From the NCBI GenBank assembly GCA_000092065.1, contig CP000587.1: DNA of 64,000 nt. One strand, 5' to 3'. Positions 2,111 through 63,403 of this stretch are shown here, in pieces (the stretch's first letter is position 1; every line of letters starts with the position of its first letter). Origin of the DNA: Ostreococcus lucimarinus (lineage: Eukaryota). A program made the position numbers and the translations under genes. The notes under the pieces were generated by a model. That model saw nothing but the letters and a program-made list of their open reading frames with translations. It made no database searches and was not told where the DNA came from.

Positions 2111-2701
2111 ATGGCGAAGTGGGGCGAGGGCGACAGCCGATGGATCGTCGACGAGCGACGCGACGGCACGAACATCAACGGTTGGCACTGGGAGGTGCGT
2201 CCTCGACGCGCCGCGCTCGGATCGCGCGTCGAACGCGCACTGACGACGAACGAACGACGACGACGACGACAGGAACGAAACATGATGAAGTGGTCTCGAG
2301 AACGCATCGAAAGCTTGCTCGTCGGCGTCGATCTCGACGTCCCGGTGAGCGAGGGTCGAGCGACGGTGACGGAACTGTCGAAATTCGAGGGAGACTCGAG
2401 CGTGAGCACGCGCAAGGGAGGTAAAAAGTTTGGATGCTTTGACCTGAGCTTCACGGCGAAGTGGCGCGGCGTCGTCGGCGTCGCGGCGGATTCGACGGAG
2501 GATGAAGACGAGGTGAAGGGGGAGATTGTGGTGAAAGAATTTTGCTCGACGAATGATGAGGATGAATACGACTTCGCGGTGTCGGCGAAGGATGGGAAGT
2601 CCGAGTCGAAGGCGTTGTTGAAATCTCGCGTCGAAAAGAGCGTCGAGGCTATTTTGCTTCCAAAGCTTCGCCAGTTTTGCGAAGAGTTGAAGGAGATGTG
2701 A
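2111..2701 (+). CDS. Aha1 N-terminal domain protein (activator of Hsp90 ATPase N-domain only, Hch1-like), 2 exons with an in-frame intron at 2195..2272
   Basis: MAKWGEGDSRWIVDERRDGTNINGWHWE matches the start of the Aha1_N domain. Removing a 78-nt GTGCGT...ACAG intron (branch ACTGAC at 2239..2244) joins WHWE directly to ERNMMKWSRERIESLL, which restores alignment to human AHSA1 (WHWTERDASNWSTDKLKTLF). There is no Aha1 C-terminal domain. Stop TGA at 2699..2701. Confidence 0.75.
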   Translation: MAKWGEGDSRWIVDERRDGTNINGWHWEVRPRRAALGSRVERALTTNERRRRRQERNMMKWSRERIESLLVGVDLDVPVSEGRATVTELSKFEGDSSVSTRKGGKKFGCFDLSFTAKWRGVVGVAADSTEDEDEVKGEIVVKEFCSTNDEDEYDFAVSAKDGKSESKALLKSRVEKSVEAILLPKLRQFCEELKEM

Positions 2702-2834
2702 ACGACTGAACGACATAGCGATCGGAATTAGCAACGAAGATCACACCACGATTATTTACCGTATAGCACGTTGTACATGTTATTTTCTTTGATTAAAAGA
2801 AAAGCGCGGCTACAAGGGTACAAGCGCGGCGTCG

Positions 2835-3752
2835 CTAGAGGGTCGCCTTGAGACTATCGCTCAGGCTTTCCACGTTCGTATCGTCGCTGTCTCCGCTATC
2901 GCTGCGCGTGCGTTGATTGCGCAATCGAACCTTGGTGCGTTCAGCGTTGATCTCGAATTTATCGCGATGCGAGTCGAAAAATTCCAGATACGTCTCCGGC
3001 ATCGTCACGGGCTTGCGACATCTGCCGCTCACGCCAGTCTTGCTTTTAATCGCCATCCACTCCCCATCTCCCACCTCCTTGAACAAAAATCCGAAGACCC
3101 TGTCCAGATACTCATCTCTCGCCGACCGGAACGCCGCACCGGTAAATTTAATCGCCGGCTGCGCTTGCTTGGCGTCCGCGCGGTTGCCAAAACTCGTCCC
3201 GCTTCTCGGATGAGGAAGCGAACCGGGCTTGAACGTCGCGCGATCACCGCGCGGAGGTCGCCCGGCGAACGCGCCGTTCCCTCCCCGAGCGCTCCCCGCG
3301 CTCGTGGCGTACGAATACACCGCCACGGGAGGTGAAGACGCAGACCGCGGCGACACGCTCTTGTCGCGTCCGTCTCCGTAACTGCTTCCGAGTTGACCGT
3401 CGCCAAAGCTCGGAGGCTTGAGCGCCGATTGCGGCGAAAGCGTGTACGACGGAGAGTCTTCGATCGATCGTTTTGATCCACTCGTCATCTCCCCCCCGCG
3501 CAAGTGCGGGGGCGTGTTCATCATGATATCGCTCGGCGAGGAAGTTTCCGGAACGAAGCGCTTCAGAGGCCCCGGCGAGCCCGCGCACTCGCGCACCACC
3601 TCCAAATCCGCCACCGTGATCCCCCGCGCCGACGGCGCCGCGCACAGCGCTTGCTCCATCGACGGCGCCTCCTCGAATAAATCATCGGGCAAATGACTCA
3701 CCAAATCATCATCGCGCCCCCTCGAAGGCGCGCTTCGACTCAAATACGCCAT
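2835..3752 (-). CDS. Hypothetical protein (S/P-rich N-terminal half, conserved-looking C-terminal 90 aa)
   Basis: ORF 305 aa with a real ATG at 3752..3750 and high GC3. The C-terminal segment IKFTGAAFRSARDEYLDRVFGFLFKEVGDGEWMAIKSKTG is not low-complexity. I recognise no domain. Confidence 0.4.
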   Translation of the reverse strand: MAYLSRSAPSRGRDDDLVSHLPDDLFEEAPSMEQALCAAPSARGITVADLEVVRECAGSPGPLKRFVPETSSPSDIMMNTPPHLRGGEMTSGSKRSIEDSPSYTLSPQSALKPPSFGDGQLGSSYGDGRDKSVSPRSASSPPVAVYSYATSAGSARGGNGAFAGRPPRGDRATFKPGSLPHPRSGTSFGNRADAKQAQPAIKFTGAAFRSARDEYLDRVFGFLFKEVGDGEWMAIKSKTGVSGRCRKPVTMPETYLEFFDSHRDKFEINAERTKVRLRNQRTRSDSGDSDDTNVESLSDSLKATL

Positions 3753-3780
3753 CTCGCTCGCCTCGCGTCGCCCCTCGTCC

Positions 3781-4173: not shown

Positions 4174-4415
4174 CCACCGGCGCGATGCCGACGCGCGCCG
4201 TCCGTCGAGCGCGTCGCGCGAATCGCGCCGCGCGAATCGCGCCGCGCGTCGGCGTCGCGCGTCGAAGCGGCGTCGCGCGTCGCGCGAGGTGCCGACGCGA
4301 ATCCGTGTCCGTGTGGTGCGCCACGCGGGAGGGTTTTTGTTTGACCCGTAACAACGGATTGGGATCGCCGAATGCCGATCGACGCGCGACGCGGCCGCGC
4401 ACCGACGCGCGCGGG

Positions 4416-7310: not shown

Positions 7311-7369
7311 AACTCCAGCGAAGTGAAACGGTAGGCGTGACAAAAAATAAACTAGTTATTGCATTTCAA

Positions 7370-7857
7370 TCAGTCGGTCGCAAACGTAAACTTGATTCCA
7401 GAATCGCCCACCGGCGCGTCGGCCTCCGCGCTCTTGTCCTTGCCGAACGACCGCTCGTACTCGCTTCGTTCCTTTCTCGAATCGTCTTCCGCGCACGAAT
7501 CGCTCGCGCACACGCACGACGCCCCGAGCACCTTCACGACCTTCAGCTCGTATCCCTCGCCGCACGCACCGCCGCCTTGCTTGAACAACGATTCCGCGCT
7601 CAGCGCCGGCGCGCTCTCGGCGTCTCGCTTCCTGTCCTCCTCCATCTGCCGCATCATCTCCGCGTACGCGTCGTTGTTCCCGCTCTTATTCAGCCCCGCG
7701 CTCGCGACGGGCGTCATCGTCAGCGCCATCGCCGCCGACGCCGCGAGCGCGACGCACGCGCGCGCCAACGCGCCGTCCTCCTCACCGCGTCGTCGCGTCG
7801 TCGTCGCGCGCATCGTCGTCGTCGCGCGCCTCGCGCGCGTCTTCGTCGTCCGCACCG

Positions 7858-7890
<33 letters not shown>

Positions 7891-7903
7891 ACGTCGTCGC
7901 CAT
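7370..7903 (-). CDS. Hypothetical protein (poly-Thr N-terminus from a (GTC)n microsatellite, Cys-containing C-terminus)
   Basis: ORF 177 aa with ATG at 7903. It has high GC3 on the minus strand, and its C-terminal half (GEGYELKVVKVLGASCVCASDSCAEDD...) is not low complexity. It sits between MED14 and the Rieske gene. Confidence 0.3.
7863..7890. repeat. (GTC)n microsatellite, about 9 units
   Basis: A perfect trinucleotide run, read directly. It encodes the poly-Thr of the minus-strand ORF 7370..7903. Confidence 0.9.
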
Positions 7904-9216: not shown

Positions 9217-9268
9217 ACACTAAAATTCTATTTTATTAATACACGCGCCGCTGACAGAAACGTCATCA

Positions 9269-9843
9269 TCACGCCGTCTTCAACGCGATCCCGAGCGCGC
9301 GATCCCTCTTCGCGCCCATGCGCGCGCTCGCGCTCGCCAACGGCTTCGCCGCGTTTCGTCCGACGGTTTTCGTCCAAACGATGAACTGATACGACAACCA
9401 AAGTTTCCCCCCGAACGTGATGGGCTTGATGCATCCCCGGAAAAACAGCGACTCCGCCAACGACAGCGTCAATCTCTCCGCGTTCGCCGCTCGCAGCGCC
9501 GGCACGCGCGTCGTCGCTTTCGCCGTCTGCTTCGCCGCCGCCGCGAGCGTCTTCCGAAACAGCGGCGCCGCCTTCTCGGCCACCTTCGTCTTCGCGAGCG
9601 GCTTCAGCACCGTCCGCGACGGTTCGATCGCGTACGCCGCGATCCACGTCGACGCCGCGAACGCCACGGATATCACCTCGTGAAACCTGCGCGCGCGTCG
9701 TCGAGTCCGAGTCAGTCTTCGCGTCGTCTTCGCTTTATCCGCCTCCTTCGCGCGTCGCTCGCGCGCGTCACGCACACGAACGCCGGAACGACGTCCGTCG
9801 GGGTGAGTCCTTTATCGACGAAGTACTCGCGCGCGCGTCCCAT
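9269..9843 (-). CDS. Small hydrophobic protein, 2 exons (9843..9776 and 9686..9269); function unknown
   Basis: The supplied ORF 9269..9775 starts at GTG and has no internal ATG, yet its GC3 is about 90 percent. An exact intron signature lies at its 5' end on the minus strand: donor GTGCGT at 9775..9770, ACTGAC at 9716..9711, and acceptor CAG at 9689..9687. The upstream exon carries ATG at 9843 (MGRAREYFVDKGLTPTDVVPAF) and joins in phase to V-FHEVISVAFAASTWIAAYAIEP. Confidence 0.45.
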
Positions 9844-9908
9844 CGCGCGCGCGCGCGGCGGTTCGAAGTGACGCCCCTGGGCACCTCGACGTCACTCTCG
9901 AGCGCGCG

Positions 9909-10091: not shown

Positions 10092-10124
<33 letters not shown>

Positions 10125-12078: not shown

Positions 12079-12539
12079 CGAGTGGCGCCGCGCGCGTTTT
12101 CCGCATATTCTATTATATTATCGCCTAGGTATGGGTAATTAGCGCGCGCGAATAACGACCCTGGAACGCGCGAGGGGGGGGTCGACGACGAGTCGCGACC
12201 CGTCGCGAACGGTTTTCCGCGACCGCCGTCGAATCCCGCGGATCCCGGCCGCCGGACGTCGGGGCGCTCGGGGCGCTCGGCACCGCACACCCGCGCGCAC
12301 GGAATCGCGCGCGACCGAACGCGCGCGCGCGCTTCGCCCGAGCGACGCGCGACGAACGACGCGCGTCGTTTTTCTTCGCTCGACGGCGTCGACCGCGTCG
12401 CGCGCGCGTCGACGGCGACTCGGCGTCGACGGCCGACGCGTCGCGAAGCATCGATCGCGGATTCGTTCGCGAAGGGTGACGAATCCGAATCGCGACGCGC
12501 GCGCGCGTCGAGCGCGCGGGCGCGGCGCGGTCGAGCGCG

Positions 12540-14282
12540 ATGGCGACGACGACGATGGTTGGGTGCGGTTTTAAGGCGGCGAACCGCCGGGGCGCGAGCT
12601 TCGCGCGTCGCGCGCGCGTCGGCGAGGCGCGCGTCGCGCGCGCGCGGTTCGCGACGCGACCGATGCGCGCGGCGGCGGTGGACTCGGGCGCGGGATTCGC
12701 GGAAGCGGTGCGTCGGCGAACGCGCGAACGCGACGAACGCGAGCGCGCGCGATTCGCGAAAACTGTGCGCGTCGAGCGCGCGTCGCGCGCGGCGCGGGGG
12801 GGGACGCGCGCGACGACGCGAGGCGCGAACGCGAGGCGGTGGGGGAACCACCGCGTCCCTAGGCGAAAGGATAGGATGGGTTTTGCGGCGCGACGCGCGG
12901 GCGAGCGAGGAGACGCGACGGAGGCGGTGACTGACGAACGCGCGGTGTTTTGGATGAAACAGGAAGGCACGGCGAAGGAGCGATCGTTCGATGCGTCGAT
13001 GCGCGTGCCGACGAGCATGGCGAGAATCGGGCGGCAGCTCGGCGGCGGCGGCGCGGCGACGCTGGAGAAGGCTGGGCTGAGCATGCAGCAACAGGCGCAG
13101 GTGTCGAGCCCGAAGCTCGCCGACGGCGGCGGTGGTGGGAATAACGGTGGTAAGATTAACAACGGTGGTGGTGGCGGTGACGGCGACGAAGGGGACGACG
13201 ATGATTACTTTGAGGAGGGGGACGACGACGACGGCGAGGAGGGATTTTTTAGCACGAGGGCGGCGATCGGAGAGACGTTTGACAGAAAGGCTATTCAGGC
13301 GGTTTTGTCTGAGTGGTTCAAGACCATGGAATCGCTTCCAGGTGGTATTCGCATGGCGGTGGAGATGGGCATCGTGTCCTCTCTCGCTCTCGTGCGTTTC
13401 ATGAGCGTCAACGTGCGCCCGAGCGTGGTGCGCGCCGTCTCGCGCGGAACGCCGCAAGCGTTTTCCCGCGCCTTTGTCGGTCGCCTCATGGCTGATCCCG
13501 CGTTCTTGTACAAACTCGCGTTCGAGCAAGTGGTGACGATCGGTGCGGCGACGATGTACGAAGTCGCCCATCGTGGCGAGCGTTTGAAGTCGGAGTGGGA
13601 CCTCGCGCTGAGCAACATCATGCAGTTGTCCCTCGCGAACGCCTTGACGGTTTGGTGCTGCACGCCGGTGCGATCCTTCGGGTCGTCCGCGACGAACGGT
13701 TTCCAAAAGTTCATGGCGACCATGCCGAACAACGCGTTCGACCGTGCTGGTCCTTTGCGCCAGTACACCAACGCGACTCGTGGGTTGAGCGTCGTCACCA
13801 AAGCCGCGGAATTATCCGCCGTGGGCGTGTTGACGGGCGGGGCGTTCTCCGCCATCAACACTGGGTTGTTGGCCTTGCACAAGAACAAGAAGGGCGAGCA
13901 ATGGGAACCGGCGATTCCGGTCCCGGATCTCAAGACTTCGGCTCTCGGCATGGGCGCCTTCCTCGGCATCTCGTGCAACTTGAGATACCAGCTCCTCGGC
14001 GGCGCCGATCGGTGGATGACGGAGCACCTCACGTCGTTGGCGTCCTCCGTGTCCGCCACCGCGTTAGGCCGCGTCATCAACAACCAGCTGGGTGAGCCCA
14101 CGCGATTGTTCGCGTTGGGTCTTCCCATGCACGCGTCGTTGGCGCAAACCGCCGGCTCAGCCATTCCTCAGTTGACCAAGAAGAAGGTGGTCAAGAAGCG
14201 AAGAAAGGTTGCGAAGAAGCGCGTCGCGGCGGCGGCGGCGACGACGACGGCGACGCCCGAAGTCCCGATGGCCACCGCTTAA
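12540..14282 (+). CDS. RETICULATA-related (DUF3411) plastid envelope protein; candidate intron at 12765..12962
   Basis: ATG at 12540. The C-terminal 300 aa (LSEWFKTMESLPGG...FQKFMATMPNNAFDRAGP...NTGLLALHKNKKGEQWEPAIPVP...GISCNLRYQLLGG) match the RETICULATA/RER DUF3411 family. A GTGCGC donor at 12765, ACTGAC at 12930..12935 and a CAG acceptor at 12960..12962 would remove 66 low-complexity codons in frame. Confidence 0.7.
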   Translation: MATTTMVGCGFKAANRRGASFARRARVGEARVARARFATRPMRAAAVDSGAGFAEAVRRRTRERDERERARFAKTVRVERASRAARGGTRATTRGANARRWGNHRVPRRKDRMGFAARRAGERGDATEAVTDERAVFWMKQEGTAKERSFDASMRVPTSMARIGRQLGGGGAATLEKAGLSMQQQAQVSSPKLADGGGGGNNGGKINNGGGGGDGDEGDDDDYFEEGDDDDGEEGFFSTRAAIGETFDRKAIQAVLSEWFKTMESLPGGIRMAVEMGIVSSLALVRFMSVNVRPSVVRAVSRGTPQAFSRAFVGRLMADPAFLYKLAFEQVVTIGAATMYEVAHRGERLKSEWDLALSNIMQLSLANALTVWCCTPVRSFGSSATNGFQKFMATMPNNAFDRAGPLRQYTNATRGLSVVTKAAELSAVGVLTGGAFSAINTGLLALHKNKKGEQWEPAIPVPDLKTSALGMGAFLGISCNLRYQLLGGADRWMTEHLTSLASSVSATALGRVINNQLGEPTRLFALGLPMHASLAQTAGSAIPQLTKKKVVKKRRKVAKKRVAAAAATTTATPEVPMATA

Positions 14283-18513: not shown

Positions 18514-19590
18514 ATGTCTGCCCTTCTCGCTTCCTCCTTCGTCGGCCGCGTCGCCGCCTTCAAGGCGACCAAGATCCAAGTGCGTATTTTTTCGAGCGCG
18601 CGCGCGACGCGCGGACGCGCGGCGCGGCGCGGAGGCGTCGCGCGACGCGCGCGAACGCGGGGCGGGCGCGGATGCGTATCGTATCTCGCGGGCGCGCGCG
18701 TGGGCGCGCGTGGGCGCGCGCGGGCGCGCGGACGGGCGCGGGGGGGGGGAGAAACGAGCGAGTGGGAATGTTTCGCGTCGTTCGCGGGCGCGGCGGGCGC
18801 GGCGGGCGCGGCGCGCGCGCGTGGGGGGGTGGATACGCGCGCGCGGTGGATGCGCGGATACGATACGGTTTTCGGGGAGATCTTTCCGGGGGCGACCGAC
18901 CGACCGATTGGATGACCGAGAGACTGACGACTATGATTTTTCGCTCGATCGCAGGCCAAGTCTGTCTCCACGACCGTCAAGGCTGACATCTACCCGGAAT
19001 TCGGTACCTACCCGGGCGGTGGCGAATCCCCGATCATCCCGTTCGGCGATGAAAAGAACGCCGAGCGCGAAGTGATCCACGGCCGCTGGGCGATGCTCGG
19101 CGTCACCGGCGCGTGGGCCGCCGAAAACGGCACCGGCATCCCGTGGTTCACCGCGGGTACCTTGTGCACCCCGGATGACTGCACCGCCGTCGCGGACAAG
19201 TTCCCGGGCGCCGTCGCCCCGCTCGCGCCGGAAGGCTCTGGCTACCCGTCCTTCTGGAACGTTCTCATCATCGAGATCGTTCTCGTCGGCGCCGCGGAAG
19301 CGTACCGTACCGGTATCTCCGACTCTCCGTTCGATGATGGCCTCACCGTCGGTGACGTCAACCCGGGTGGACGCTTCGACCCGCTCGGCCTCGCCGAGTC
19401 TGGCGACCTTGAAGAACTCAAGATCAAGGAGCTCAAGCACTGCCGCTTGTCCATGTTCGCGTGGTTGGGCTGCATCTTCCAAGCGCTCGCCACCCAAGAA
19501 GGCCCGATCGCCAACTGGCAATCCCACGTTGCGGACCCGGTTCACTCCAACGTCCTCACCAACGCGGCCAAGGGCTTCGGCTTCTACTAA
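18514..19590 (+). CDS. Light-harvesting chlorophyll a/b-binding protein (prasinophyte Lhcp-like), 2 exons with an intron at 18580..18954
   Basis: Exon 1 (18514..18579, MSALLASSFVGRVAAFKATKIQ) ends at donor GTGCGT. A 375-nt G-rich intron has ACTGAC at 18923..18928 and an acceptor CAG at 18952..18954. Exon 2 reads AKSVSTTVKADIYPEFGTYPGGGESPIIPFGDEKNAEREVIHGRWAMLGV...ELKIKELKHCRLSMFAWLGCIFQA, giving LHC helices 1 and 3. Stop TAA at 19588..19590. Confidence 0.85.
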
Positions 19591-22918: not shown

Positions 22919-23429
22919 CGCGCGCGCCCGCGTCGCCGCGCGTCGCTCGCGCGCGTTTATCTCTCGCGCGTCGCGTCGAGACGTCGCGCTCGCGCGCGTC
23001 GCTCGCGCGGCGTCGCGCTCTCGCGTCGCGGCGTCGCGGGCGGAATTTGAATTCGCGTATCCGAATGTCCGAATACCGCACGCGCAGAATTTAATGCCTG
23101 TTTACCCATACACCACGCATCGTGAGCCAGTCACGCGCGCGCCTGGATTTAATGGACCTCCGACTGTTTGCGCACGCGCGCGCGCGCGCGCCCCGCGCGG
23201 GACGTCGGGACAACCGCCGCGTCGGCCGATCGCCGCACATCGACGCGCGACGCGCGAACGAGCGACGTCGGCGCGCGCGCGCGAGGACCGCGCGCGACGA
23301 ATCGACGCGCCCGAGCGACGGTAGACGTCGAACGAGACGCGCGCGGAACGACGACGCGCGCATTCCTTTGACGCGGGAAGAGGACGTTTTTGAAATTTAA
23401 ACGCGGCGCGACGCGGCGACGGCGGCGCG

Positions 23430-25002: not shown

Positions 25003-25305
25003 ATGGCATCATCCCGCGCCGCCGCGCCCCCGAGTGGAGAAAACGCGCAAGTGCGCCATCTCGGGCGCGGCAACCGCGTGCGCACGCCTACGCATCCGAC
25101 GAAGGGCGACTATTTGAGCATCAAGACCGAAGAAGTCATCTTCGGCATCTTGTTCGCGTTCATGGCGTGGAAACTGTGGCAGAGCGTGCGCGGTTTATTT
25201 AGATACTGGAAGTACGTGCGCGCGCCGAACGCGCCGGAGACAGAGCTCGAGGCAGGGGCGATCGCGTTCGAGGAAGATGACGATGAGAACGAAAAGATTG
25301 ATTGA
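25003..25305 (+). CDS. Hypothetical small single-pass membrane protein
   Basis: ORF 100 aa with ATG at 25003. It has one hydrophobic helix (VIFGILFAFMAWKLWQSV) and moderate GC3. It lies between two convergent genes. Confidence 0.25.
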   Translation: MASSRAAAPPSGENAQVRHLGRGNRVRTPTHPTKGDYLSIKTEEVIFGILFAFMAWKLWQSVRGLFRYWKYVRAPNAPETELEAGAIAFEEDDDENEKID

Positions 25306-25383: not shown

Positions 25384-25386
25384 AAT

Positions 25387-41099: not shown

Positions 41100-43214
41100 T
41101 CACGGAGGAGGAGGAGGCGGTGGTACGTTCATGCGCACCGGTTGCTGGGCGCCGGAAAGCGTCGCGATCAAACCGGCGAGATCTTGCGCTTGGAACGCCG
41201 GCGGCGCGGCGGCGGGCGGCGGCGGCGGGGGAACTTCTCGAAGAGTTTGGGGGGGCGCGAGCGGCGCCATCTGCGCTGAGGGTGGCGGTGGTGGCGGAAC
41301 CTCCATGAATTGCGCCGGTGGCGCGTTGGGCGCGTACTCATCCTCGTCGACGTGCTCTTCGACGCGCGTCTTCTTTGATCGATGAAGTTCCTTCGAGTCG
41401 ACTTTCCTTGGACCGATGCCTCGCGGATGAATCACCATTCCAATCATCCCCGTCGACGGTGGGACGTGTCCCGGGATAAGGTCGACGGTTAAGATGACTT
41501 TATCCGCGTGCTGACCGCGAGGCGCGAGATACAGCTCGATGCCATCCTCCGTTTTCGCCACGCCGCATCGCTTGCGCTCGCGATATTGTTTGACGATCTT
41601 CGCCATCGCCGCTTCCGCGTCGTCTCCGCCGCTCGGCGCGCTCGAGATATGCACGAGCGTCACCGCGCGCGACGTCGACGAGCGGTGGACTTGCTTGACG
41701 AAAGATTGCATGGCTTTGTAGTCGACGCGGCCTTTGATGTGCAAACTCTCGGGCAAGATGTCGCCGACGTGGGCGCCTTCGCCGCCGATGGGCACCGCTC
41801 GCAGCTGAAGCGTAGGCAGTCCTGGAACATCTACGGTGCCTTCCCACGCACCTTCGGGAAGAGGAACATCTATCGGGTCGTCGGCGGGATTGTATTCTTC
41901 TTCTTCCACCTCATCCGCCGTAGTCGCTTCCGGGTCGTACTCAGGTTCGTCCTCCGGTTCGTACTCGGGCTCTGGCTCGTATTCCGGCGCGGCGTCTTCC
42001 TCGTCTTCCTCTTCTTCCTGCTCCTCTTCCTTGTCTTCTTCGCCTCCATTCGCAAACTTTTCGAAAGAAAGCATTTCTGAATCATCACCGTCGACGTTCA
42101 TCGGTGCGGCTTCTTCGTGCTCCTCGTCTGACAGTTGGTCGTTCCCAGACGTCACGTCAATCTCGGTGACTTGCGTCGGCTCTTCCTCGACGCTCGGCGT
42201 TTGTTCCACGGGCTTCGACGGCGCCGGTTCTTCTGGCTTCAGCTCGACGTGAATTTCATTCTTCCCATCTTTCTTCACCACTATATCCTCAAGCGCGATT
42301 CCCTTCATAAAGGCACCCTCGCCCGCGATTTCCTGTCGCGCCTTGCGCCACTCGACGAGCTCCTTGTTGGCCAACTGCAGCGGAGACATGTCCACGAGTT
42401 GTGAAGCTTTCAAATCGTTCGCGAGCACGCGCGCCCGTAATTGAGGGTTGCGCACGTCCTGTAAGTTGGATTTTAAAGACCGCGCGCGCGTTCTGTACTC
42501 TTTGTCAGCCGAACCGCATTTTTTATACAGCGCCGATTCGACCGCCGCGGCGACTTCGCTCGGCGTTCCATTGGCTTCGTCGTGCCCGCTCGCTTTCGTC
42601 TCCTCCGCCGCCATCTCCATCGCCTTCAAAATGAATTCACGAACGGTACTGCGAATCTTTTCCTCCTCCGCCTTCGCCGCCTCCATCTCCGCCATTCGTT
42701 TACGATTCGGTTGCTTTGTCCGTTCCCGCTTCGCGCCTCGCGCCTCTTGCGCGTCTCGTCGCGCCATCATCTCCCTCGCGTGCGCCTCGTCCCTGTACAC
42801 CGGCCACGACACCTCATCGTCTAAAATCGCTTCCTCGAGATTGATCGACTCGCGTTCGCCCTCCTCCGCGTCCGGGCCGAGCGAATCCGGGTACCACAGC
42901 GTCGCCGTTCTCGCCTTCGCGTCGATCTCCATCACCTTGGCGTCGTACCACACCCCCGTCTCCGGCCACGCCACGGACACGTACTTCCCTGTCGTTTCGA
43001 ACCGCACGCGCGTCAGTGTCGTTCGTTCGCGCCCGTCGTCGTCGTCGTCGCGCGCGCCGTCGCGTCGCGCCGTCGCGAAACGCGTTCGAGCAATCATCGC
43101 CGTCTCGACCAATCGACCCACGAACGACCGTCGATTCGCGTCGAAAGCGCGTCGCGCACCTCGCAACCGCGAGCTGATGTCATCCAGCGTCAACAGCTTG
43201 CGCTTGTCTCGCAT
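41100..43214 (-). CDS. TFIIS central-domain protein with an N-terminal Tudor/agenet-like region and acidic repeats (PHF3/Bye1/SPOC-type transcription regulator)
   Basis: ORF 704 aa with ATG at 43214. The TFIIS-M domain is ALYKKCGSADKEYRTRARSLKSNLQDVRNPQLRARVLANDLKASQLVDMSPLQLANKELVEWR. The C-terminal half resembles a SPOC domain. There are poly-E/D linkers and proline-rich tails. Confidence 0.6.
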   Translation of the reverse strand: MRDKRKLLTLDDISSRLRGARRAFDANRRSFVGRLVETAMIARTRFATARRDGARDDDDDGRERTTLTRVRFETTGKYVSVAWPETGVWYDAKVMEIDAKARTATLWYPDSLGPDAEEGERESINLEEAILDDEVSWPVYRDEAHAREMMARRDAQEARGAKRERTKQPNRKRMAEMEAAKAEEEKIRSTVREFILKAMEMAAEETKASGHDEANGTPSEVAAAVESALYKKCGSADKEYRTRARSLKSNLQDVRNPQLRARVLANDLKASQLVDMSPLQLANKELVEWRKARQEIAGEGAFMKGIALEDIVVKKDGKNEIHVELKPEEPAPSKPVEQTPSVEEEPTQVTEIDVTSGNDQLSDEEHEEAAPMNVDGDDSEMLSFEKFANGGEEDKEEEQEEEEDEEDAAPEYEPEPEYEPEDEPEYDPEATTADEVEEEEYNPADDPIDVPLPEGAWEGTVDVPGLPTLQLRAVPIGGEGAHVGDILPESLHIKGRVDYKAMQSFVKQVHRSSTSRAVTLVHISSAPSGGDDAEAAMAKIVKQYRERKRCGVAKTEDGIELYLAPRGQHADKVILTVDLIPGHVPPSTGMIGMVIHPRGIGPRKVDSKELHRSKKTRVEEHVDEDEYAPNAPPAQFMEVPPPPPPSAQMAPLAPPQTLREVPPPPPPAAAPPAFQAQDLAGLIATLSGAQQPVRMNVPPPPPPP

Positions 43215-43285: not shown

Positions 43286-43385
43286 ATGGGGTTCTGGTTC
43301 ACCACGCTCGCGTTCGCCGCGCTCGAGGGGGTGTTCTACGCCTACGTCCAGGGCTCGGCGCCCGCGGCGCGACGATCGTGCGTGA

Positions 43386-43416
<31 letters not shown>

Positions 43417-43621
43417 ACGACGACGGATGGCTCGGTCGACGGCTGCACGAGTGAACGAAAGGATGACGACGATGACTGACGGCACGACGCGCGGACGACG
43501 CAGTTTCCTGCACGTGATGTACGGCACGAGCGTGTTCTGCTGTTGGTTCATGTGGGCGGTGATTTACATGGCGCAGATGACGCCGCTGGTGCGGCCGGTG
43601 TTGCAGGCGAAGGAGTCGTAG
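43286..43621 (+). CDS. V-type ATPase subunit e (Vma21/ATP6V0E-like), 2 exons with an in-frame intron at 43378..43503
   Basis: Exon 1 reads MGFWFTTLAFAALEGVFYAYVQGSAPAARR. A 126-nt GTGCGT intron (ACTGAC at 43475..43480, acceptor CAG) joins it to S-FLHVMYGTSVFCCWFMWAVIYMAQMTPLVRPVLQAKES. The spliced 70-aa product aligns to human ATP6V0E1 ([54 protein letters not shown]). Confidence 0.7.
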
Positions 43622-43875: not shown

Positions 43876-45289
<1,414 letters not shown>

Positions 45290-48774: not shown

Positions 48775-48853
48775 AGCGCGTACGCACTTAGCCATCGTCC
48801 CTCAAAGCGCGCCGCGCCGCGCCGCGCCGCGCGCGCGGAGCGTCGCCGCGCCG

Positions 48854-49504
48854 ATGCTCCGAGTCACCGTGGACGTCATCGCCGTCCCCGACGCGCCGCT
48901 CGACGCGCGACGCTTCGTCGTGGACGCGCCGGAGGACGTCACGTTCGCCGACTTGCGCGAAATCTTGGCGACGCGCGCGCGCGTCGACGCGTCCACCGTG
49001 CGCGTGCACGTCAAGGGAAAGGCGTGCCGAGACGACGACTCGCCGCGAAAACACGCGACGCGCGATGGGCGGTTGCGGGTGAGCGTGATGCCGGATCCAG
49101 CCGCGCGACGCCGCGCGATGGATGCGGAGCTGCGGCGACTGCGCGACGAACAAAAGCGAAAGTTCGCCGAAGCGCGGAGCGACGAGAATTCTTCAGACGA
49201 CGCCGCGGCGAAGCGGAGAGCGACGACGGCGATCGATGATAAGACGCGAGAGTGCGAACGCCTGAGCGCGGAGGTGGACGCGCTGGAACGATTCGGATCG
49301 GACGGCGCGCGAACGCGCGAGCGGTTACACTTTTTGAGCGACGCGTTCGAGCGAGCGTTGGTGCACTTGGACGGGATCGATAGCTTGGGCGATGACGACG
49401 TGCGCGCGGCGCGCAAGCGCGCCGTGCGGTTTGTGGACGCGCTGGCGGAGCGAGTCATAGACATGAAGAGTCGTCTCGCGGAGGGAGGCGAAGCCGGAGC
49501 GTAA
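48854..49504 (+). CDS. BAG-family co-chaperone with an N-terminal ubiquitin-like domain
   Basis: ATG at 48854. The ubiquitin-like N-terminus is MLRVTVDVIAVPDAPLDARRFVVDAPEDVTFADLREILATRA. The C-terminal helical BAG-like region is LHFLSDAFERALVHLDGIDSLGDDDVRAARKRAVRFVDALAERV. Confidence 0.65.
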   Translation: MLRVTVDVIAVPDAPLDARRFVVDAPEDVTFADLREILATRARVDASTVRVHVKGKACRDDDSPRKHATRDGRLRVSVMPDPAARRRAMDAELRRLRDEQKRKFAEARSDENSSDDAAAKRRATTAIDDKTRECERLSAEVDALERFGSDGARTRERLHFLSDAFERALVHLDGIDSLGDDDVRAARKRAVRFVDALAERVIDMKSRLAEGGEAGA

Positions 49505-49523
49505 CCGACGCGACGAACGCGCC

Positions 49524-49616
49524 GAAGAACAGTCCCTTCGAAGAACAGTCCCTTCGAAGGTAGTGCCTTTGAAGATAGACCCATCGTAGATAGCTCGATC
49601 GTAGATAGCCCCATGG
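49524..49616. repeat. Array of about 6 diverged 15-16-nt units (GAAGAACAGTCCCTTC-like), relatively AT-rich, in the BAG-gene 3' region and F-box promoter
   Basis: gaagaacagtcccttc x2 is followed by gaaggtagtgccttt, gaagatagacccatc, gtagatagctcgatc and gtagatagccccatgg. Confidence 0.7.
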
Positions 49617-49622
49617 AAAAGA

Positions 49623-51725
49623 ATGTTGCATTCACAGCGCGCGTTTCCGGTGGCGCTTCGTCGCCGACGCGTCCCGCACACGATGCCTCGCGCCTCGCGG
49701 CGCGCCGCGTCCTCCTCCGACGCTTCGTCGGAGGAGGACGTCGCGTCCGCGGCGGCCGAGCGTGTTCGTGACGAACACGCTCCATCGCTCAAGTACGTTC
49801 CCGGTTCGAGTGGTAAAGCGCAGCGCGCGCGCGCGAAATTGCTTCGTAACGCGTCGAGACGCAAGCGAGAGCAGCGCGCTGAGCGACGCTCACCGTCGGC
49901 GTCGCCGTCGGAATCGTCGCCGACGCCGCGCGACGCTCGCACCGCGACGAATGTCGTCGAACTGCGCGCGCTGCTCGAGCGAATCAGCCTGACGGAGCTC
50001 GAGCGCGAGACGTTCGTCGCGCGCCGCGGCGAGGACGGCGACGTCAAAGTCTGCGAAGCGAGCGCGTTCGTCGAGTCAGTGCGACGGAATGAGGCGCGAC
50101 TGCGGGACGTCGAGCGAGTGGAGATGCTCGGAAACGACGACGATGATGATGGTTATGTAATTTGGCCCAGGAATGATGGGACGGCGCGACAGATGCGGTA
50201 CGAAGACGCGACGGCGGCTCGATGCGCGTTGGACCACGCGCCGAGCGAAGTCTGGGAGCGGATTTTCGGCTTTCTTAATCTGCGAGATGCGGTGCGATTG
50301 GCGGCCACGTGTAAATCGACGTGGATATTGTCCCAGCGAGAATTCATGCGGGACAAGCGGTATGAGTCGATGTTTGGTCGCGCGCGGGCGTCGGCGGAGG
50401 AGGGTGCCGACGGCGACCGCGCGATGGTGGTTTCATTTCTCTCCAGCGAGCGGTGGCTCGGGGAATCCCACGTGGGCGAGACGAAGTTTCCGAAACCCGT
50501 CCATTTTGGCGTCGGTCCGAGTTTTGTGCGCGGATTGATCGCGGACGAAACGACGGTGACGTCGTTCGATCGGGAAAAGGTGAAGATTTGGTACCACGGC
50601 GCTCGCGGCGACGACGACGCGGGCGGGCGTTTGGCGTCGTTATTCGTCGAGAAGAAGAGTTCGGCAACGCGCGGACTTACCGCATTAGCTATCAATCAGT
50701 CGAGCATCGTCGCGGGGGACGACGGCGGTCGATTACGGATATGGCAGAGCGACACATTGGAGTACGTGCAGCGCAGAGCGCACGCCATTGCAAACGATTA
50801 CGCCGTAACGGCGCTTTGCGGCATTCCTGCGACGTCGCTCGTAGTTTGTGCTAGCGCGAAGAGTACAAATTTAGAAATTTGGGACACCGAAGAAGTCGCG
50901 AGCGTGACTTCAATCGCGCTTGGGGACCTGGTGCACGATGGCGATGGCGGTAACGCGCATCACGGAGCCACATGCATGAGCATGTTCGGCGGAAACTCCT
51001 ATTCAAACCGCTCGTACATCGGCGGCGCCACGTCTCGTCTCTGGGCTGGAACGACTTTTCAAAAAGTCGTGGGCGTTGACTTGAATCGCGCGACTTTTGT
51101 CGATACGCTCAATCTTCCCGAGTCGTATGCAAGCGAGGCAGAGATCCGAGCCATCGCGGTGAATGGTCCGTTGATAGCCGCCGTCGTGGCGGATGGCGCC
51201 GTGATGTGGGATCGCAGAGCCATGCCACACGAACAAGTTGTCGCGACGTTTGCGTCGCCGTTTTCGCACATTGCGGGCGCGTCGGAGCAATCAAGTTGCA
51301 TCGATTTGGAAGATTTCGCGCTTTGGATGTCGAATCCAGGAGACCCAGGGGTGAGCATGTTTGACATTCGAAAAACGTTCGGGCCGCCGCGCAAGCAAGA
51401 ACGATGGGTATCGTCGCTGACGACGAACGCAGTCACAAATATCTTGCGTCCTCGCGCACGCACGCGTGGATTTAGTGAAGAGGTCAACGTCGGATGTTTT
51501 GCGCGCGTTGCCGGCGCTCCTGGTGCAGTGATCGTTGCACCCGACTCTGACTCCAGCGAGGCGCGATGTTCGATATTTTTGCACAAAAACGAGATGCCCT
51601 CGATGGTTGACATCGAGACCATGGCGAACGAGTTCGACGATCAGTGGCGTTCGAGACGAGCTCGCAAGCAAGGCAAGCCGCCTCAACCGAAATCGCGCGG
51701 TCGATATCCGAAGAGGAGCAGTTAA
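49623..51725 (+). CDS. F-box protein with a WD40-like beta-propeller region
   Basis: ATG at 49623, with an alternative at 49683. The F-box is HAPSEVWERIFGFLNLRDAVRLAATCKSTWIL. The C-terminal 400 aa have repeated blade-like segments (ITALAINQSSIVAGDDGGRLRIWQ). Confidence 0.6.
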   Translation: MLHSQRAFPVALRRRRVPHTMPRASRRAASSSDASSEEDVASAAAERVRDEHAPSLKYVPGSSGKAQRARAKLLRNASRRKREQRAERRSPSASPSESSPTPRDARTATNVVELRALLERISLTELERETFVARRGEDGDVKVCEASAFVESVRRNEARLRDVERVEMLGNDDDDDGYVIWPRNDGTARQMRYEDATAARCALDHAPSEVWERIFGFLNLRDAVRLAATCKSTWILSQREFMRDKRYESMFGRARASAEEGADGDRAMVVSFLSSERWLGESHVGETKFPKPVHFGVGPSFVRGLIADETTVTSFDREKVKIWYHGARGDDDAGGRLASLFVEKKSSATRGLTALAINQSSIVAGDDGGRLRIWQSDTLEYVQRRAHAIANDYAVTALCGIPATSLVVCASAKSTNLEIWDTEEVASVTSIALGDLVHDGDGGNAHHGATCMSMFGGNSYSNRSYIGGATSRLWAGTTFQKVVGVDLNRATFVDTLNLPESYASEAEIRAIAVNGPLIAAVVADGAVMWDRRAMPHEQVVATFASPFSHIAGASEQSSCIDLEDFALWMSNPGDPGVSMFDIRKTFGPPRKQERWVSSLTTNAVTNILRPRARTRGFSEEVNVGCFARVAGAPGAVIVAPDSDSSEARCSIFLHKNEMPSMVDIETMANEFDDQWRSRRARKQGKPPQPKSRGRYPKRSS

Positions 51726-52729: not shown

Positions 52730-53722
52730 TCATAACGTCATGATTTCCTTCTCCTTCGCCGCACATCGCTGCGTGATCTTTCCCACGATGTCGTCGGTGA
52801 GCGCTTGTAAATTCTTCTCCGCGCGCTTTCGATCGTCCTCCGACATTTCGGCGCGCTTGATTCGCTTTTGCGCCTTGTGCCGGATGTTGCGCGCGGCAAT
52901 CTTGGCCGTCTCGCCGAGCTTGCTCGCGAGCTTGCACACCTCTTTCCTCGTATCCTGTGTCATCGCTGGAATGGGCACGATCAAACCATCACTGGACTCT
53001 TTGGGAACGAAACCGAGCGGCGAGTTCACGATGGCTTTCTCCACGCTCGGCTTGGTGCTCGGATCGAACAGCGTGACGGAGAGCGTCTGCGCATTTGGCG
53101 CCGTGATCGTGCCCAAGTGCGAGAGTGGCGTCGGTTCACCGTATACATCGACAATAATGTGATCAATCATCCCCGCCGACGCGCGCGCCGTGCGCAACTG
53201 CGACAAATCGACATCCAACGCGTGCAACGCCGCGTCAAATTTACTATTCGCGACGTCCGCGTCAGTCGTGCATTCGCGCGCGCATCACCGCGCGCATCGA
53301 GTGCGCGCCCTCGCATCGACGTACCTCTGCCACTCTTTCGCGTCGTACTCCACGACGTCGCCTTCCTCGCCACCGTCGCCGTCACCGTCCTCGTCGCCGT
53401 CGCCGTCTTCGTCGCTCGCCGCCGCCGCTCTTTGTTTCTGCTTCTTCTTCTTGCTATACGACCTCGCGGCGACGTCCCGCGCTGCCGCCGGCGTCGACGC
53501 GCGCATCGAGAGCAGACACCAGCGCATCGCCGTCCCGCCTCGCGCGTCGTCGAACGACGCCGTCGTCGCGACGTCACCGCGCGCGCGCATCGTCGAAAGT
53601 TGTCGTCGCGGTGCGGCGTCGCCACGCGCGACGGCGTCGCCGAGCGCGGACGATGCGCGAGCGCCGTCGAGGATTGCGCGCGCGGCGCGCGCGCGCGCGG
53701 CGAATCGGCGTAGGCCTGACAT
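52730..53722 (-). CDS. Ribosome recycling factor (organellar type), with an intron at 53244..53324 and a long N-terminal extension
   Basis: The downstream exon (53243..52730) encodes S-KFDAALHALDVDLSQLRTARASAGMIDHIIVDVYGEPTPLSHLGTITAPNAQTLSVTLFDPS...SEDDRKRAEKNLQALTDDI...KEKEIMTL, which is classic RRF. The supplied ORF's M at 53227 is actually TTG. The minus-strand donor GTACGT is at 53324..53319, ACTGAC at 53266..53261 and the acceptor TAG at 53246..53244. The intron contains the in-frame TGA. The upstream exon runs to ATG at 53722 (a transit-peptide-like segment plus an acidic stretch). Its extent is uncertain. Confidence 0.65.
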
Positions 53723-58515: not shown

Positions 58516-58629
58516 GCGGGGCGAAAGAGTGCGTAAATAATGCGAGATGTTGATTAACAACGTTCGAGGGATGAGAGCGTACCTAACGGGCTACGGCGTC
58601 GATGGCCGAAAATGCGCGCGCGAGCGGTG

Positions 58630-60903: not shown

Positions 60904-61082
60904 CGCTCGCGCGACCGTTCGCGCGTGCGAGCGTTCGTCGGGAGTGGAACTGTGTGGATAGAGTGGCGACGGGGCCCTGTGGCGGCGAGCGGGACGGCGA
61001 CGCGGGAGCCGACGGGCGAAACGGCGCGCGCGTGGGATATCACTGAGAATAACGCTGGATATTGAATGCTAGGTCTTCTAAA

Positions 61083-61120
61083 ACGTTTAAGACGTTTAAC
61101 GTTTACGCATGACGTTTAAG
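61083..61120. repeat. Short AT-rich tandem motif (ACGTTTAAG x3 with variants) in the GlyRS 3' flank and ABC1K promoter
   Basis: acgtttaagacgtttaacgtttacgcatgacgtttaag, read directly. Confidence 0.6.
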
Positions 61121-61130
61121 ACGCGCTCGA

Positions 61131-63403
61131 TTACTCGTCCGCCGCGGTGGCTTGCTTTTCGAAGCCCGCTGTGGCGGTTTCCCAGTCGACGGTCATCTTG
61201 CACAACCGACCGAGAAGGCCAGGAACTTCGGGAATCGGCACGCGAACTTGACCGCACGAATCGCGCTCGCGAACGGTGACGGTGTTCTCGGTGACGGATC
61301 TGTGATCGACGGTGACGGCGAACGGGACGCCGAGCTCGTCGGTGCGCGCGTATCGCTTGCCGACGGAAATCGCGGTGGCGTCGAGCTTGGCGCTGATACC
61401 GTTCGTGGTCAACATCTTGTTCATTTCGGCTGCAATGGCGTTCAATTTGTCATCGTTCACGAGCGGGAAGATGGTGGTCTTGATCGGCGCGACGACCGGG
61501 GTGAGGCGGAGCACGGTTTTCTGTTCGTCATCCGGACGAATGTAAAAGGCGTGCTCGAACATGCAGTACATGATGCGGCCGATACCGAAGGATGGCTCGA
61601 TGACGGACGGAGTGTAGTTGCGCCCGTTCACCGTCTTCGTGACTTTTTCCACGGTGAACATGTCAGCCGCGATCTGTTGCTCACCGTTCTCTGTTTGAAG
61701 CGGAGCCGAACCATTCGCCGCGCACGCGTCTTGCAAAGCAAAAGCATCAGCTTCACTCAACGCAAGGAGCGCATCCGTGACGGGCTTCGCGTCTTTCTTG
61801 AAAGCCTTGCCGAGCACCTTTTTGTTCGGCGTGATCTCCACGACCGTCTCTTCGATCGGCTTGTCGAAGCGTTCGTACGCCACCAAATCCACCTTAGACT
61901 TGTCCGAGTGCGCCTTGAGATCGAACGCCGAACGATCGGCGAGCCCGACGCACTCAATCCAACCGTACGAACACTGAATTTCAGCGTCCCAGCAATCGGC
62001 GGCGTAGTGCGCCATCTCGTGCTTCAGGTGTTGACGGAAGCGAAGACGATTGGTGTCGATGCCAATTTGAACAAGGAACAAGTGGCATCGAGCAATGAAA
62101 TAACCCAAAGTTTCGTTCGCGATGATGCCCTTGCTCACGGCCTCGCCCACAGTCATCGGGAACGGCTTCTTCACCTCACCCAGCTGTGCGTCCTGGCTAA
62201 AGAGACTGAGAACGGTGTCCGCAACTTCGGCAAATCGTGGGTGCTCCTTGTGCTCCGGATGCACAAAGTGCTCGATTTCCGCTTGCGTAAACTCACGCAC
62301 GCGCAACAATCCAGCGCGCGGTGCGATCTCATTACGGAAGCTTTGACCAATCTGCGCCGCGGCAAACGGGAGCTTGCCACCGTTGTAGTAGAGCAAATCT
62401 CTAAAGTTGACAAAGATGCCCTGCGCGGTTTCGGGGCGCAAGAAACCCTTTACCGCCCCGGACGGACCAATTTGCGTCGGGAACATCAAGTTAAACGGAT
62501 ACGGCTCGCTCAAATCGTTGCCTGTGACCGGTGCCTTGGTGTTGGTGTCCTTGAGCGCCGCAGACATTTGTTCAACGTTGAGCTCGTCGATGCACGCTTG
62601 CAAATCTTCCAACTCGCGTCTGCGGTCGGCCTTCAACATCGGGTCACGCAACAGCTCCTCCACCACTTCTTCGAGCAAGTGATCGGCGCGGAAGCAATCT
62701 TTTGTCACGACATCGTTCACCATGAGATCAGTGAACTTTTCGACGTGCCTGGGATGATGGATAAAAATATCGTCAGTCTCGCGTCGCCCGGTCGTCGTCT
62801 TCGTGTCGCATCTCGTTCGACATTCGACGCAAAAACCTCAGCGGTTTGAGTGCGTTAAGCTTAATAATCACGGTTTACTCAGCGATAGCTGGAACTTAAT
62901 TGATTCGTCACAGGTAATCGGTCGAATGTCTCCGAAGTCGGCTCAAGTTCGCGTTTTGGATATCGTTCTCGCTCGTCGCGCACGTACCCCGAAGCCCTCA
63001 GCACTGGTTCCGGCGTCACCGCCGGGCACTCCACCTCCAACATGCTCTCCTCGAGCACGAAATGTTGCCTCCAAAACTGCTGCACGTTCGATTTCACCGC
63101 GCACCCCGGCGGCCCGTAGTCGTACAACCCCGCCACGCCGCCGTAAATCTTAAACGACGGAATATAAAACAGCCGGCCCTCGAGCAACTGCCCGAGTTTC
63201 GCGCGGAACTCTTCCTTCGCTTTCGCCTCGGCGTTCCCCGCCTCCTTGAGCGCGTTCAGGTCCTTCTCCAGATCGACTTTCAGTCGCTTCAGCTCGGCGA
63301 TGGCGGCTGCGATCGCATCCGCGTCGGCGTTTTGCGCCTTGAGCGCGCGCACCTGCGCGCCCGCCGCGTTCACCTCCTCTTGCTTTTGCTCCAGGGCGTC
63401 CAT
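61131..63403 (-). CDS. Glycyl-tRNA synthetase (eukaryotic dimeric type, with an N-terminal WHEP domain), 2 exons with an intron at 62749..62987
   Basis: Exon 1 (63403..62988) carries the WHEP region (MDALEQKQEEVNAAGAQVRALKAQNADADAIAAAIAELKRLKVDLEK) and LFYIPSFKIYGGVAGLYDYGPPGCAVKSNVQQFWRQHF...PEPVLRASG. The donor is GTACGT. The 239-nt intron has ACTGAC at 62777..62772 and a polypyrimidine tract TTTTTATCCATCATCCCAG. Exon 2 (62748..61131) continues G-HVEKFTDLMVNDVVTKDCFRADHLL...RPETAQGIFVNF. The junction exactly restores SGHVDKFADFMVKD of human GARS. The spliced product is about 677 aa. Confidence 0.85.

Follow-up and report, generated by a model that had tools for sequence, protein, structure and literature searches.

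Strict donor and probable branch-point signals in the introns of a 64-kb stretch of Ostreococcus lucimarinus DNA

Strict splicing signals are a known pattern of intron-poor eukaryotes; in the Saccharomycotina yeasts, introns have a GUAUGU donor and a UACUAAC branch point. In the green alga Ostreococcus lucimarinus, ACTGAC was found in 87.15% of EST-confirmed introns outside chromosome 2 and the extended form GACTGACG in 66.5% of these, together with a 5' splice-site consensus of GTGCGTG at 4.8 bits; in the portion of chromosome 2 where introns are plentiful, the share with ACTGAC was about 5% (Irimia & Roy 2008, PLoS Genet 4:e1000148; PMC2483917). The big outlier chromosome region of the Mamiellales (BOC1, chromosome 2) harbors small introns, which are 40-65 bp long, AT-rich and without detectable branch or splice-site motifs. 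The introners of Micromonas have a GacUGAC branch point and a CAG acceptor (Simmons et al. 2015; PMC4540971), and the donor preference of Mamiellales occurs with a standard U1 pairing region (Roy & Bowser 2022, bioRxiv 10.1101/2022.06.08.495308).

We examined a stretch of 64,000 nucleotides (the window) in which an original prediction, made from the letters alone, had placed nine introns and had presented their common grammar as notable. In its core, the prediction was right: These are spliceosomal introns, and the grammar of their donor and branch point is unusually strict. The grammar is neither new nor surprising, however; a 2008 description of O. lucimarinus introns already had the same ACTGAC or GACTGACG with GTGCGTG. 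The finding is correct and ordinary; because the combination of GTGCG, ACTGAC and CAG was published for this very species, and has since been extended to related algae, it is already known and carries little weight as a discovery.

Splicing signals in the window

Each of the nine predicted segments has a donor of the form GT[GA]CG, a single exact ACTGAC and a YAG acceptor. As predicted, the donor reads GTGCGT, GTGCGC, GTGCGG or GTACGT, and a CAG or TAG end follows the ACTGAC, of which there is exactly one on the sense strand, at 17-33 nt in every segment; lengths (78-375 nt) also agreed, and GC contents are 0.50-0.76. Four additional introns of the same grammar (marked "added" below) bring the window total to 13:

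2195..2272, plus strand: intron of an Aha1-like gene; 78 nt; GTGCGT, ACTGAC, CAG; putative branch A 29 nt from the 3' end
9687..9775, minus strand: intron of a gene for a 161-aa protein; 89 nt; GTGCGT, ACTGAC, CAG
12708..12962, plus strand: intron of a RETICULATA-related gene; probable donor GTGCGT (255 nt); putative branch motif ACTGAC at 12930 and CAG acceptor at 12962, both in agreement with the prediction
18580..18954, plus strand: intron of a prasinophyte LHC gene; 375 nt; GTGCGT, GACTGACG, CAG
31267..31344, plus strand: intron of the DNA polymerase delta subunit 4 gene, added; 78 nt; GTGCGC, GACTGACG, CAG
38215..38314, plus strand: intron of the NSE1 gene; 100 nt; GTGCGG, GACTGACA, CAG
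42989..43159, minus strand: intron of a TFIIS_M/SPOC-domain gene, added; 171 nt; GTGCGC, CACTGACG, CAG
43378..43503, plus strand: intron of the V-ATPase subunit e gene; 126 nt; GTGCGT, GACTGACG, CAG
44434..44571, minus strand: intron of the Rab6 gene; 138 nt; GTGCGC, GACTGACG, CAG
44765..44962, plus strand: candidate 5'-UTR intron of RPA3, placed by motif only, added; 198 nt; GTGCGA, GACTGACC, CAG
53244..53324, minus strand: intron of the ribosome recycling factor (RRF) gene; 81 nt; GTACGT, GACTGACG, TAG
62749..62987, minus strand: intron of the glycyl-tRNA synthetase (GlyRS) gene; 239 nt; GTACGT, GACTGACG, CAG
63586..63676, plus strand: candidate intron after codon 18 of a gene running off the window end, placed solely from the motif and the continuity of the ORF, added; 91 nt; GTGCGC, GACTGACG, CAG

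Boundaries are GT...AG in all 13, with the donor beginning GTGCG in 11 and GTACG in two, and with T or C at donor position +6 in 11. ACTGAC is present in 13 of 13, a figure to be read in light of the fact that six were placed partly via the motif itself, and it places the presumptive branch A 18-34 nt from the 3' end; GACTGACG is carried by eight (62%). The introns are 78-375 nt long, and their GC content ranges from 0.50 to 0.76, as against 0.615 for the whole window (0.50-0.69 in 2-kb windows). Intron density is about 0.3 per gene, and a polypyrimidine tract is almost absent between branch point and acceptor. We are highly confident that the segments are U2-type (GT-AG) spliceosomal introns of O. 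lucimarinus CCE9901, belonging to the main part of its genome, which is GC-rich and has few introns. In this GC-rich, intron-poor green alga, the donor and branch-point grammar is unusually strict. The prediction that every intron shares it, with an invariant branch motif, thus stands within the window (13 of 13) but not genome-wide, where the published shares apply.

How these signals would act can be proposed from general knowledge of splicing and the papers cited. GTGCGY or GTACGT would serve as the 5' splice site, recognized first by U1 and then by U6 snRNA, and (G)ACTGAC(G) as the branch-point sequence, bound by SF1/BBP before pairing with the GUAGUA box of U2 snRNA. The second A of ACTGAC would be bulged as the lariat nucleophile, with its G pairing by wobble. 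For the 3' splice site, the YAG that comes first downstream of the branch A, at 18-34 nt, would be used. The position of the motif and its likeness to the CTRAY/UACUAAC consensus point to this adenosine as the branch point; and since a polypyrimidine tract is nearly lacking, 3' recognition probably depends mainly on the near-invariant branch motif, as it does in budding yeast. No snRNA genes were found within the 64-kb window.

Excision, annotation and divergence

Spliced models are identical to NCBI proteins of O. lucimarinus CCE9901, annotated on a 783,246-bp record, in eight of ten cases, and precise excision is seen in public RNA-type contigs for four of the 13 introns (2195..2272, 9687..9775, 43378..43503 and 44434..44571). 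Of the eight introns outside RNA-type contig coverage, five match annotation or protein homology, and homology is continuous over the junctions of NSE1, V-ATPase e, Rab6, GlyRS and RRF. Relatives that are 94-97% identical have frame-breaking indels and excess substitutions within the introns, with donor, ACTGAC and CAG conserved. The introns evolve as non-coding sequence.

Exactly the 78 nt of the Aha1-like intron are absent from six independent public contigs (L002-L007), and the spliced product (170 aa) equals XP_001418697.1. The segment 9687..9775 is missing from a contig (L001) otherwise 100% identical to the window; its spliced product is XP_001418932.1 (the 161-aa protein had no Pfam match), and in a relative (L019) the intron has seven substitutions and a 9-nt insertion versus one substitution in 120 nt of exon. 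Contig L018 has exact excision of the V-ATPase subunit e intron (69-aa product, XP_001418714.1; Pfam ATP_synt_H match crossing the junction) and lacks the Rab6 intron (XP_001418939.1; Pfam Ras match at residues 15-172 crossing the junction at residue 20). Within the former, L013 has a 5-nt deletion; the latter differs in L014 and L017 by numerous substitutions and an indel of net -1 nt.

The spliced LHC product (233 aa) equals annotated O. lucimarinus LHC proteins (e.g., ABO96997.1). The intron of DNA polymerase delta subunit 4 was located via a census of ACTGAC, and its spliced 118-aa product is XP_001418707.1. Spliced NSE1 is XP_001418712.1, with a Pfam SMC_Nse1 match (residues 46-229) crossing the junction at residue 67, and spliced GlyRS (677 aa) is XP_001418945.1, with a gap-free alignment of human GlyRS over the junction. 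At the candidate 5'-UTR intron of RPA3 (coding sequence, XP_001418715.1), the CAG acceptor lies 2 nt upstream of the start-codon context, and the signals are kept in L013 and L014, the latter with a 6-nt deletion.

Three genes are less straightforward. The first Met of RRF exon 2 falls inside the RRF domain, and E. coli RRF aligns gaplessly over the junction, with just four aligned residues from exon 1; an exact annotated or RNA match to the spliced model was not found. Nor was an exact annotated match to the spliced TFIIS_M/SPOC model found, and the spliced RETICULATA-related product was not found on record. Because no public protein is identical to any spliced or unspliced variant tried for these three genes, their annotated models may deserve a check.

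The RETICULATA-related intron is the least secure among the nine originally predicted. Multiple GTGCG donors can precede one branch site, leaving the 5' boundary ambiguous; here, the sequence comparison favors GTGCGT at 12708 (255 nt), which is probably the donor, over the predicted GTGCGC at 12765 (198 nt), which is probably 57 nt too far 3'. In alignments with a related intron-less sequence (P0154/L043), which scored 276, 258 and 247, the 12708 model fitted best. The signals are kept in L019 and L020, with a +1 indel within the intron in L020. Eight contigs, two of them with adapter sequence, start at 12970-12987, just 3' of the acceptor, which could reflect transcription start there.

In-frame introns and other explanations

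Lengths are multiples of three in nine of the 13 introns (binomial P of about 0.009, in a post hoc test on 13 introns), including six of the original nine, as predicted, and six coding introns of such length are stop-free in frame. The claim that the six predicted ones all lack stops holds for four, the LHC and RRF introns having in-frame stops. Some stop-free segments might be facultative, staying in a sizable fraction of the mRNAs and being translated into in-frame, exitron-like inserts, in which case they would be more than plain introns. Besides the length pattern, this idea draws on 42989..43159, a stop-free multiple of three that is retained in RNA-type contig L018 while its two neighbors are spliced; however, L018 could derive from pre-mRNA or DNA. 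Moreover, relatives have frame-breaking indels in 42989..43159 (net +10 nt in L014 and -5 nt in L017, confined to the intron, with all three signals kept), 43378..43503, 44434..44571 and 12765..12962 (L020), so the inserts cannot be conserved coding sequence. We therefore regard facultative retention as unlikely. Equally doubtful is that an excess of in-frame introns holds genome-wide, such that the alga would tolerate or use in-frame retained-intron isoforms. If true, this would be the opposite of the situation in organisms such as Paramecium, whose introns are depleted of lengths divisible by three and where nonsense-mediated decay polices retention.

The unusual GTGCGY donor might also owe its function to compensation in the splicing machinery, namely a U1 snRNA that has evolved along with it and pairs with it, and not to mismatches that are tolerated. 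Entamoeba and Mastigamoeba are reported to show co-evolution of this kind, and in Mastigamoeba a preference for GUGCGC goes with a matching ACGUAC U1, but in the five Mamiellales genomes searched every U1 candidate recovered had the standard pairing region, the 5' end reading ACUUAC (Roy & Bowser 2022, bioRxiv 10.1101/2022.06.08.495308), which makes this explanation very improbable for the alga.

Still less probable is that the introns are copies of a mobile family, like the Micromonas introners, and owe their motifs to common descent instead of selection on splicing signals. Introners do have the same GacUGAC motif and CAG acceptor, and most window introns lie near gene 5' ends and are similar in size; yet their lengths spread from 78 to 375 nt, and an all-against-all comparison of the 13 gave matches of at most 20 nt, comprising (GAC)n, GC-repeats and the signals. 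Near-identical whole-intron copies, which define introner elements, are absent among them.

That chance in GC-rich sequence produced the motif combination, the segments being coding or intergenic, is scarcely credible: Although ACTGAC is unremarkable in overall count (17 copies on both strands versus about 15 expected), 13 of the 17 fall inside 1,962 nt of intron (1.5% of the strand-sequence), with four in the remaining 126,038 strand-nt (Poisson P of about 3e-26), and exact excision, annotated spliced products, continuous homology and indels confined to the segments all speak against it. Chance is already refuted for the majority of introns; for 44765..44962 and 63586..63676, the case is built on motif and ORF considerations.

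Chance does limit motif-only intron finding, which is less powerful than had been claimed. The composite of donor, ACTGAC and YAG occurs 12-14 times versus 3.3-4.8 in dinucleotide shuffles (about 3-5 chance matches per 64 kb), one shuffle reached 14 with a loose donor, and the match at 54621 is a false positive, lying antisense within a 1,577-codon ORF. Introns that are stop-free multiples of three were also said to be invisible in an ORF track; this holds, and prokaryote-style callers read through them, but NCBI annotation already splices at least eight of the introns. On metagenome contigs, such callers have yielded read-through products of 580 and 704 aa, and exon-only fragments of 139, 173 and 530 aa stand in public collections. 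The practical value of the grammar is real but modest. With prokaryote-style callers, genes in marine metagenomes are read through, or cut short, at these introns; a step that takes the signals into account would give better Ostreococcus gene models for metagenome-assembled genomes.

Comparison with described intron systems

Two intron classes can be set aside. U12-type introns, of the minor spliceosome, have RTATCCTT as donor, and their branch site, TCCTTAAC, precedes the acceptor by 10-15 nt, whereas those in the window have GTGCG or GTACG donors and ACTGAC at 18-34 nt. The BOC1 small introns share genomes and spliceosome with the window introns, which differ in being longer (78-375 nt), 50-76% GC and strict in their motifs.

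The Saccharomycotina yeasts resemble the alga in their intron-poor genomes, near-invariant branch-point hexamer, weak or absent polypyrimidine tract, introns biased to gene 5' ends and a donor atypical at +4 without U1 compensation. They differ in having ACUAAC rather than ACUGAC (a G.U wobble) and a GUAUGU rather than GUGCGU donor, and they are a lineage separate from this green alga with its GC-rich introns. The strictness that the two share is convergent, not homologous.

Closer are the Micromonas introners and the introns of Mamiellales, which share with the window the GacUGAC branch point, CAG acceptor and G/C-rich donor preference, standard U1 snRNA being reported in Mamiellales despite the +4C donor; introner elements, however, form sequence families of many copies and have GYRaGu as donor, and the window introns share only their signals. 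The closest system is the non-chromosome-2 class of O. lucimarinus itself. The window encodes O. lucimarinus proteins, is not of low GC, and has GTGCG-type donors with ACTGAC near the intron 3' end; its ACTGAC share (13 of 13) is compatible with 87% genome-wide (P of about 0.16 at a true rate of 0.87), and GACTGACG stands at 62% against 66.5% published. Species, ACTGAC, GACTGACG, GTGCGTG donor and intron-poor, GC-rich setting are the same, and there is no material difference between the two.

Splice signals of the introns

The original prediction held that nine introns of this window obey a rigid grammar, and both its reading of the sequence and its interpretation of the segments as introns proved correct. 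When read on the sense strand, all nine segments begin with GTGCGT, GTGCGC, GTGCGG or GTACGT; each contains precisely one copy of ACTGAC, and each terminates in CAG or TAG 17–33 nt past that motif, which places the branch A 18–34 nt from the intron end. Their lengths of 78–375 nt are as described, and intron GC content ranges from 0.50 to 0.76 (window, 0.615). Between branch site and acceptor the introns have no polypyrimidine tract (T fraction 0–0.39, zero in three introns); (GAC)n or GC-rich sequence often fills this spacer. Two further introns and two candidates had been missed.

Introns of the window (coordinates, strand, location), with frame-breaking indels in relatives; the last four entries are the additions, which share the architecture, ACTGAC included
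2195..2272, plus, Aha1-like gene
9687..9775, minus, gene of a 161-aa protein (9269..9845)
12765..12962, plus, RETICULATA-like gene; indel of +1 nt in relative L020
18580..18954, plus, LHC
38215..38314, plus, NSE1
43378..43503, plus, V-ATPase e; indel of -5 nt
44434..44571, minus, Rab6; indel of net -1 nt
53244..53324, minus, RRF
62749..62987, minus, GlyRS
31267..31344, plus, DNA polymerase delta subunit 4 (POLD4)
42989..43159, minus, TFIIS_M/SPOC-domain gene; 171 nt, stop-free, multiple of 3; indels of net +10 and -5 nt
44765..44962, plus, candidate in the 5' UTR of RPA3, ahead of its start codon
63586..63676, plus, candidate in a gene running past the window end

The claim that every intron found carries the signature holds for 13 of 13 in the window, but six of these were placed at least partly by motif, so that the count is not independent. 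ACTGAC is not enriched window-wide (17 copies on both strands, where a Markov model predicts about 15 and shuffles give about 19), but its placement is extreme, with 13 copies within the 1,962 nt of introns and four in the other 126,038 strand-nt (Poisson P about 3e-26). Those four (16837 and 39315, plus; 54621, plus; 50080, minus) are in coding regions or on their antisense strand. As an intron finder, the composite pattern (donor, ACTGAC and the first YAG 11–34 nt on, with a length up to 500 nt) is enriched, occurring 12–14 times in the window vs. 3.3–4.8 times in 200 dinucleotide shuffles, but it is not specific enough to serve alone; the match at 54621 is a false positive.

Having built a map of about 40 genes, we found no introns without ACTGAC in the four largest non-coding gaps or by a one-mismatch branch scan of the window's non-coding sequence. 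The scan gave two matches, one in a 3' UTR and one intergenic, which we judged implausible and attribute to chance. The four gaps contain divergent promoters or small genes, the latter characterized by eye.

Small genes in the largest gaps
7370..7903, minus, 177-aa ORF with an apparent twin-arginine, lumen-type presequence
25004..25305, plus, 100-aa ORF, apparently membrane-spanning
48854..49504, plus, ORF resembling a ubiquitin-like/BAG-domain protein

A longer ORF antisense to the last (48802..49785, minus) looks spurious. The 10-mer TTACCCATAC, which may be a promoter element, has exactly two copies in the window (12129..12138, minus, and 23102..23111, plus), each in a long divergent-promoter gap; two matches with at most one mismatch were reached in 7 of 100 shuffles.

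Removal from RNA and divergence among relatives

Several lines of evidence bear on whether these segments are spliced. With regard to retention in mature RNA, four introns are instead removed exactly in RNA-type contigs, public sequences 99.5–100% identical to the window that skip the introns precisely: 2195..2272 is absent from six independent contigs (L002-L007), 9687..9775 from L001, and both the V-ATPase e intron (43378..43503, plus) and the Rab6 intron (44434..44571, minus) from L018. This last contig retains 42989..43159 (minus) of the adjoining SPOC/TFIIS_M gene, which could reflect inefficient splicing, i.e., intron retention, or a contig assembled from mixed precursor and mature RNA. 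These same RNA-type contigs cross two or three adjacent genes, opposite strands included, with introns removed, which suggests that neighboring transcription units overlap or abut in this compact genome.

When spliced candidates were looked up by exact protein sequence, eight of ten exactly matched NCBI entries for Ostreococcus lucimarinus CCE9901 encoded on a 783,246-bp record (Aha1-like, LHC, NSE1, V-ATPase e, Rab6, GlyRS, POLD4 and the 161-aa protein), and therefore at least eight introns are already spliced in public annotation with precisely the same boundaries. The RPA3 coding sequence also equals an NCBI protein, and no contigs encoding the POLD4 protein are on record. Homology is in agreement: Pfam matches span the junctions of NSE1, V-ATPase e and Rab6, and human GlyRS aligns across the GlyRS junction without gaps.

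In relatives (metagenome contigs L013, L014, L017, L019 and L020, 94–97% identical), frame-breaking indels are confined to introns, and in all introns with such indels the GTGCG donor, ACTGAC and CAG are conserved. Thus, even stop-free introns whose length is a multiple of three are non-coding. Most of the observed indels are copy-number changes of the short tandem repeats (GACGC)n and (GAC)n within introns (e.g., 43378..43440, plus), whose copy number differs among closely related populations (L013, L014 and L017).

The original prediction that six of the nine introns are stop-free multiples of three stood for length, but only four of the six are stop-free in frame, since the LHC and RRF introns hold stops. 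Over the full set, nine of 13 lengths are multiples of three (binomial P about 0.009), or eight of 12 without the 5'-UTR intron (P about 0.019), a post hoc result from a small sample; six of the coding introns of this kind are stop-free in frame. This excess and the single retained intron in L018 are residual oddities resting on small samples. The introns also show a strong 5' bias: Ten of 12 coding introns fall in the first 75 codons, seven of these in the first 33.

Gene models that differ from public annotation

Least secure among the nine is the intron of the RETICULATA-like gene, whose branch site and acceptor seem correctly placed; its donor is probably the GTGCGT at 12708 rather than 12765. 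In a related Ostreococcus contig (L043), the encoded protein (P0154) has an uninterrupted N-terminus, and of the three versions compared the 12708 model fits it best ('AAVDGAMGYGHAEESTTDERGFNASM' vs. 'AAVDSGAGFAEA|EGTAKERSFDASM'), with scores of 276 for this model, 258 for the 12765 model and 247 for the unspliced sequence. Moreover, 12708..12764 diverges in L019 at the same pace as the intron. In the protein family, the conserved block already begins before the Met at 12999, which speaks for an exon upstream. Eight independent public contigs (L024-L031) begin at 12970–12987 (plus), 8–25 nt past the acceptor at 12962, five of them at 12970 and two at 12979, where Illumina adapter sequence immediately precedes them; these ends could reflect transcription initiation there or a break in assembly at the splice junction. 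Exact-sequence look-ups returned no spliced product of this gene on record. Its spliced junction, and that of Aha1 used as a positive control, each had zero matches in metagenome contigs, an uninformative result in that the collection evidently lacks both transcripts.

Across the RRF junction, E. coli RRF aligns without gaps, but exon 1 contributes only four aligned residues. The gene requires an upstream exon, given that its intron contains an in-frame stop and that exon 2 has its first Met within the RRF domain. All ten RRF contigs seem unspliced, as judged by gene-call spacing. Contig L042 contains no other intron and could derive from RNA or DNA.

For RRF (52730..53637, minus), the RETICULATA-like gene (12540..14282, plus) and the SPOC/TFIIS_M gene (41100..43214, minus), none of 22 exact-sequence variants (19 of them with alternative starts or donors) equals an NCBI O. 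lucimarinus entry. Among the 19 alternatives, the only matches were to metagenome read-through or exon-only ORF calls, with no NCBI model. The public models of these genes must therefore differ from ours, and they may merit re-examination.

Published introns and predicted recognition

This grammar is an already-published property of O. lucimarinus, re-derived here. Of 319 introns outside chromosome 2 of the same genome that ESTs confirm, 87.15% have ACTGAC and 66.5% have GACTGACG, with a strong 5' splice site of 4.8 bits and an "atypical consensus GTGCGTG", and chromosome 2 introns are without these signals (Irimia & Roy 2008, PMC2483917). In our window, GACTGACG occurs in eight of 13 introns (62%). 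Introns of the outlier chromosome are motif-less and 40–65 bp long (Moreau et al. 2012, PMC3491373). The Mamiellales donor preference was noted by Roy & Bowser (2022, bioRxiv 10.1101/2022.06.08.495308), who reported that U1 candidates of five species retain the standard pairing region. Introner elements of Micromonas carry GacUGAC and CAG (Simmons et al. 2015, PMC4540971); we reject an introner family here because the 13 introns have nothing in common in sequence but signals and low-complexity repeats.

The signals are those of U2-type splicing, with snRNA and protein contacts that we predict from general knowledge; an Rfam scan of the window gave no match to snRNA genes. The 5' splice site reads GUGCGY, differing from the canonical GUAAGU by its +3 G and +4 C. 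The ACUGAC branch site could pair with the GUAGUA box of U2, with its penultimate A bulged and its G in a wobble pair, and the acceptor is the first YAG 18–34 nt downstream. With no pyrimidine-rich tract ahead of the acceptor, 3' recognition probably relies mostly on the branch motif, as in budding yeast.
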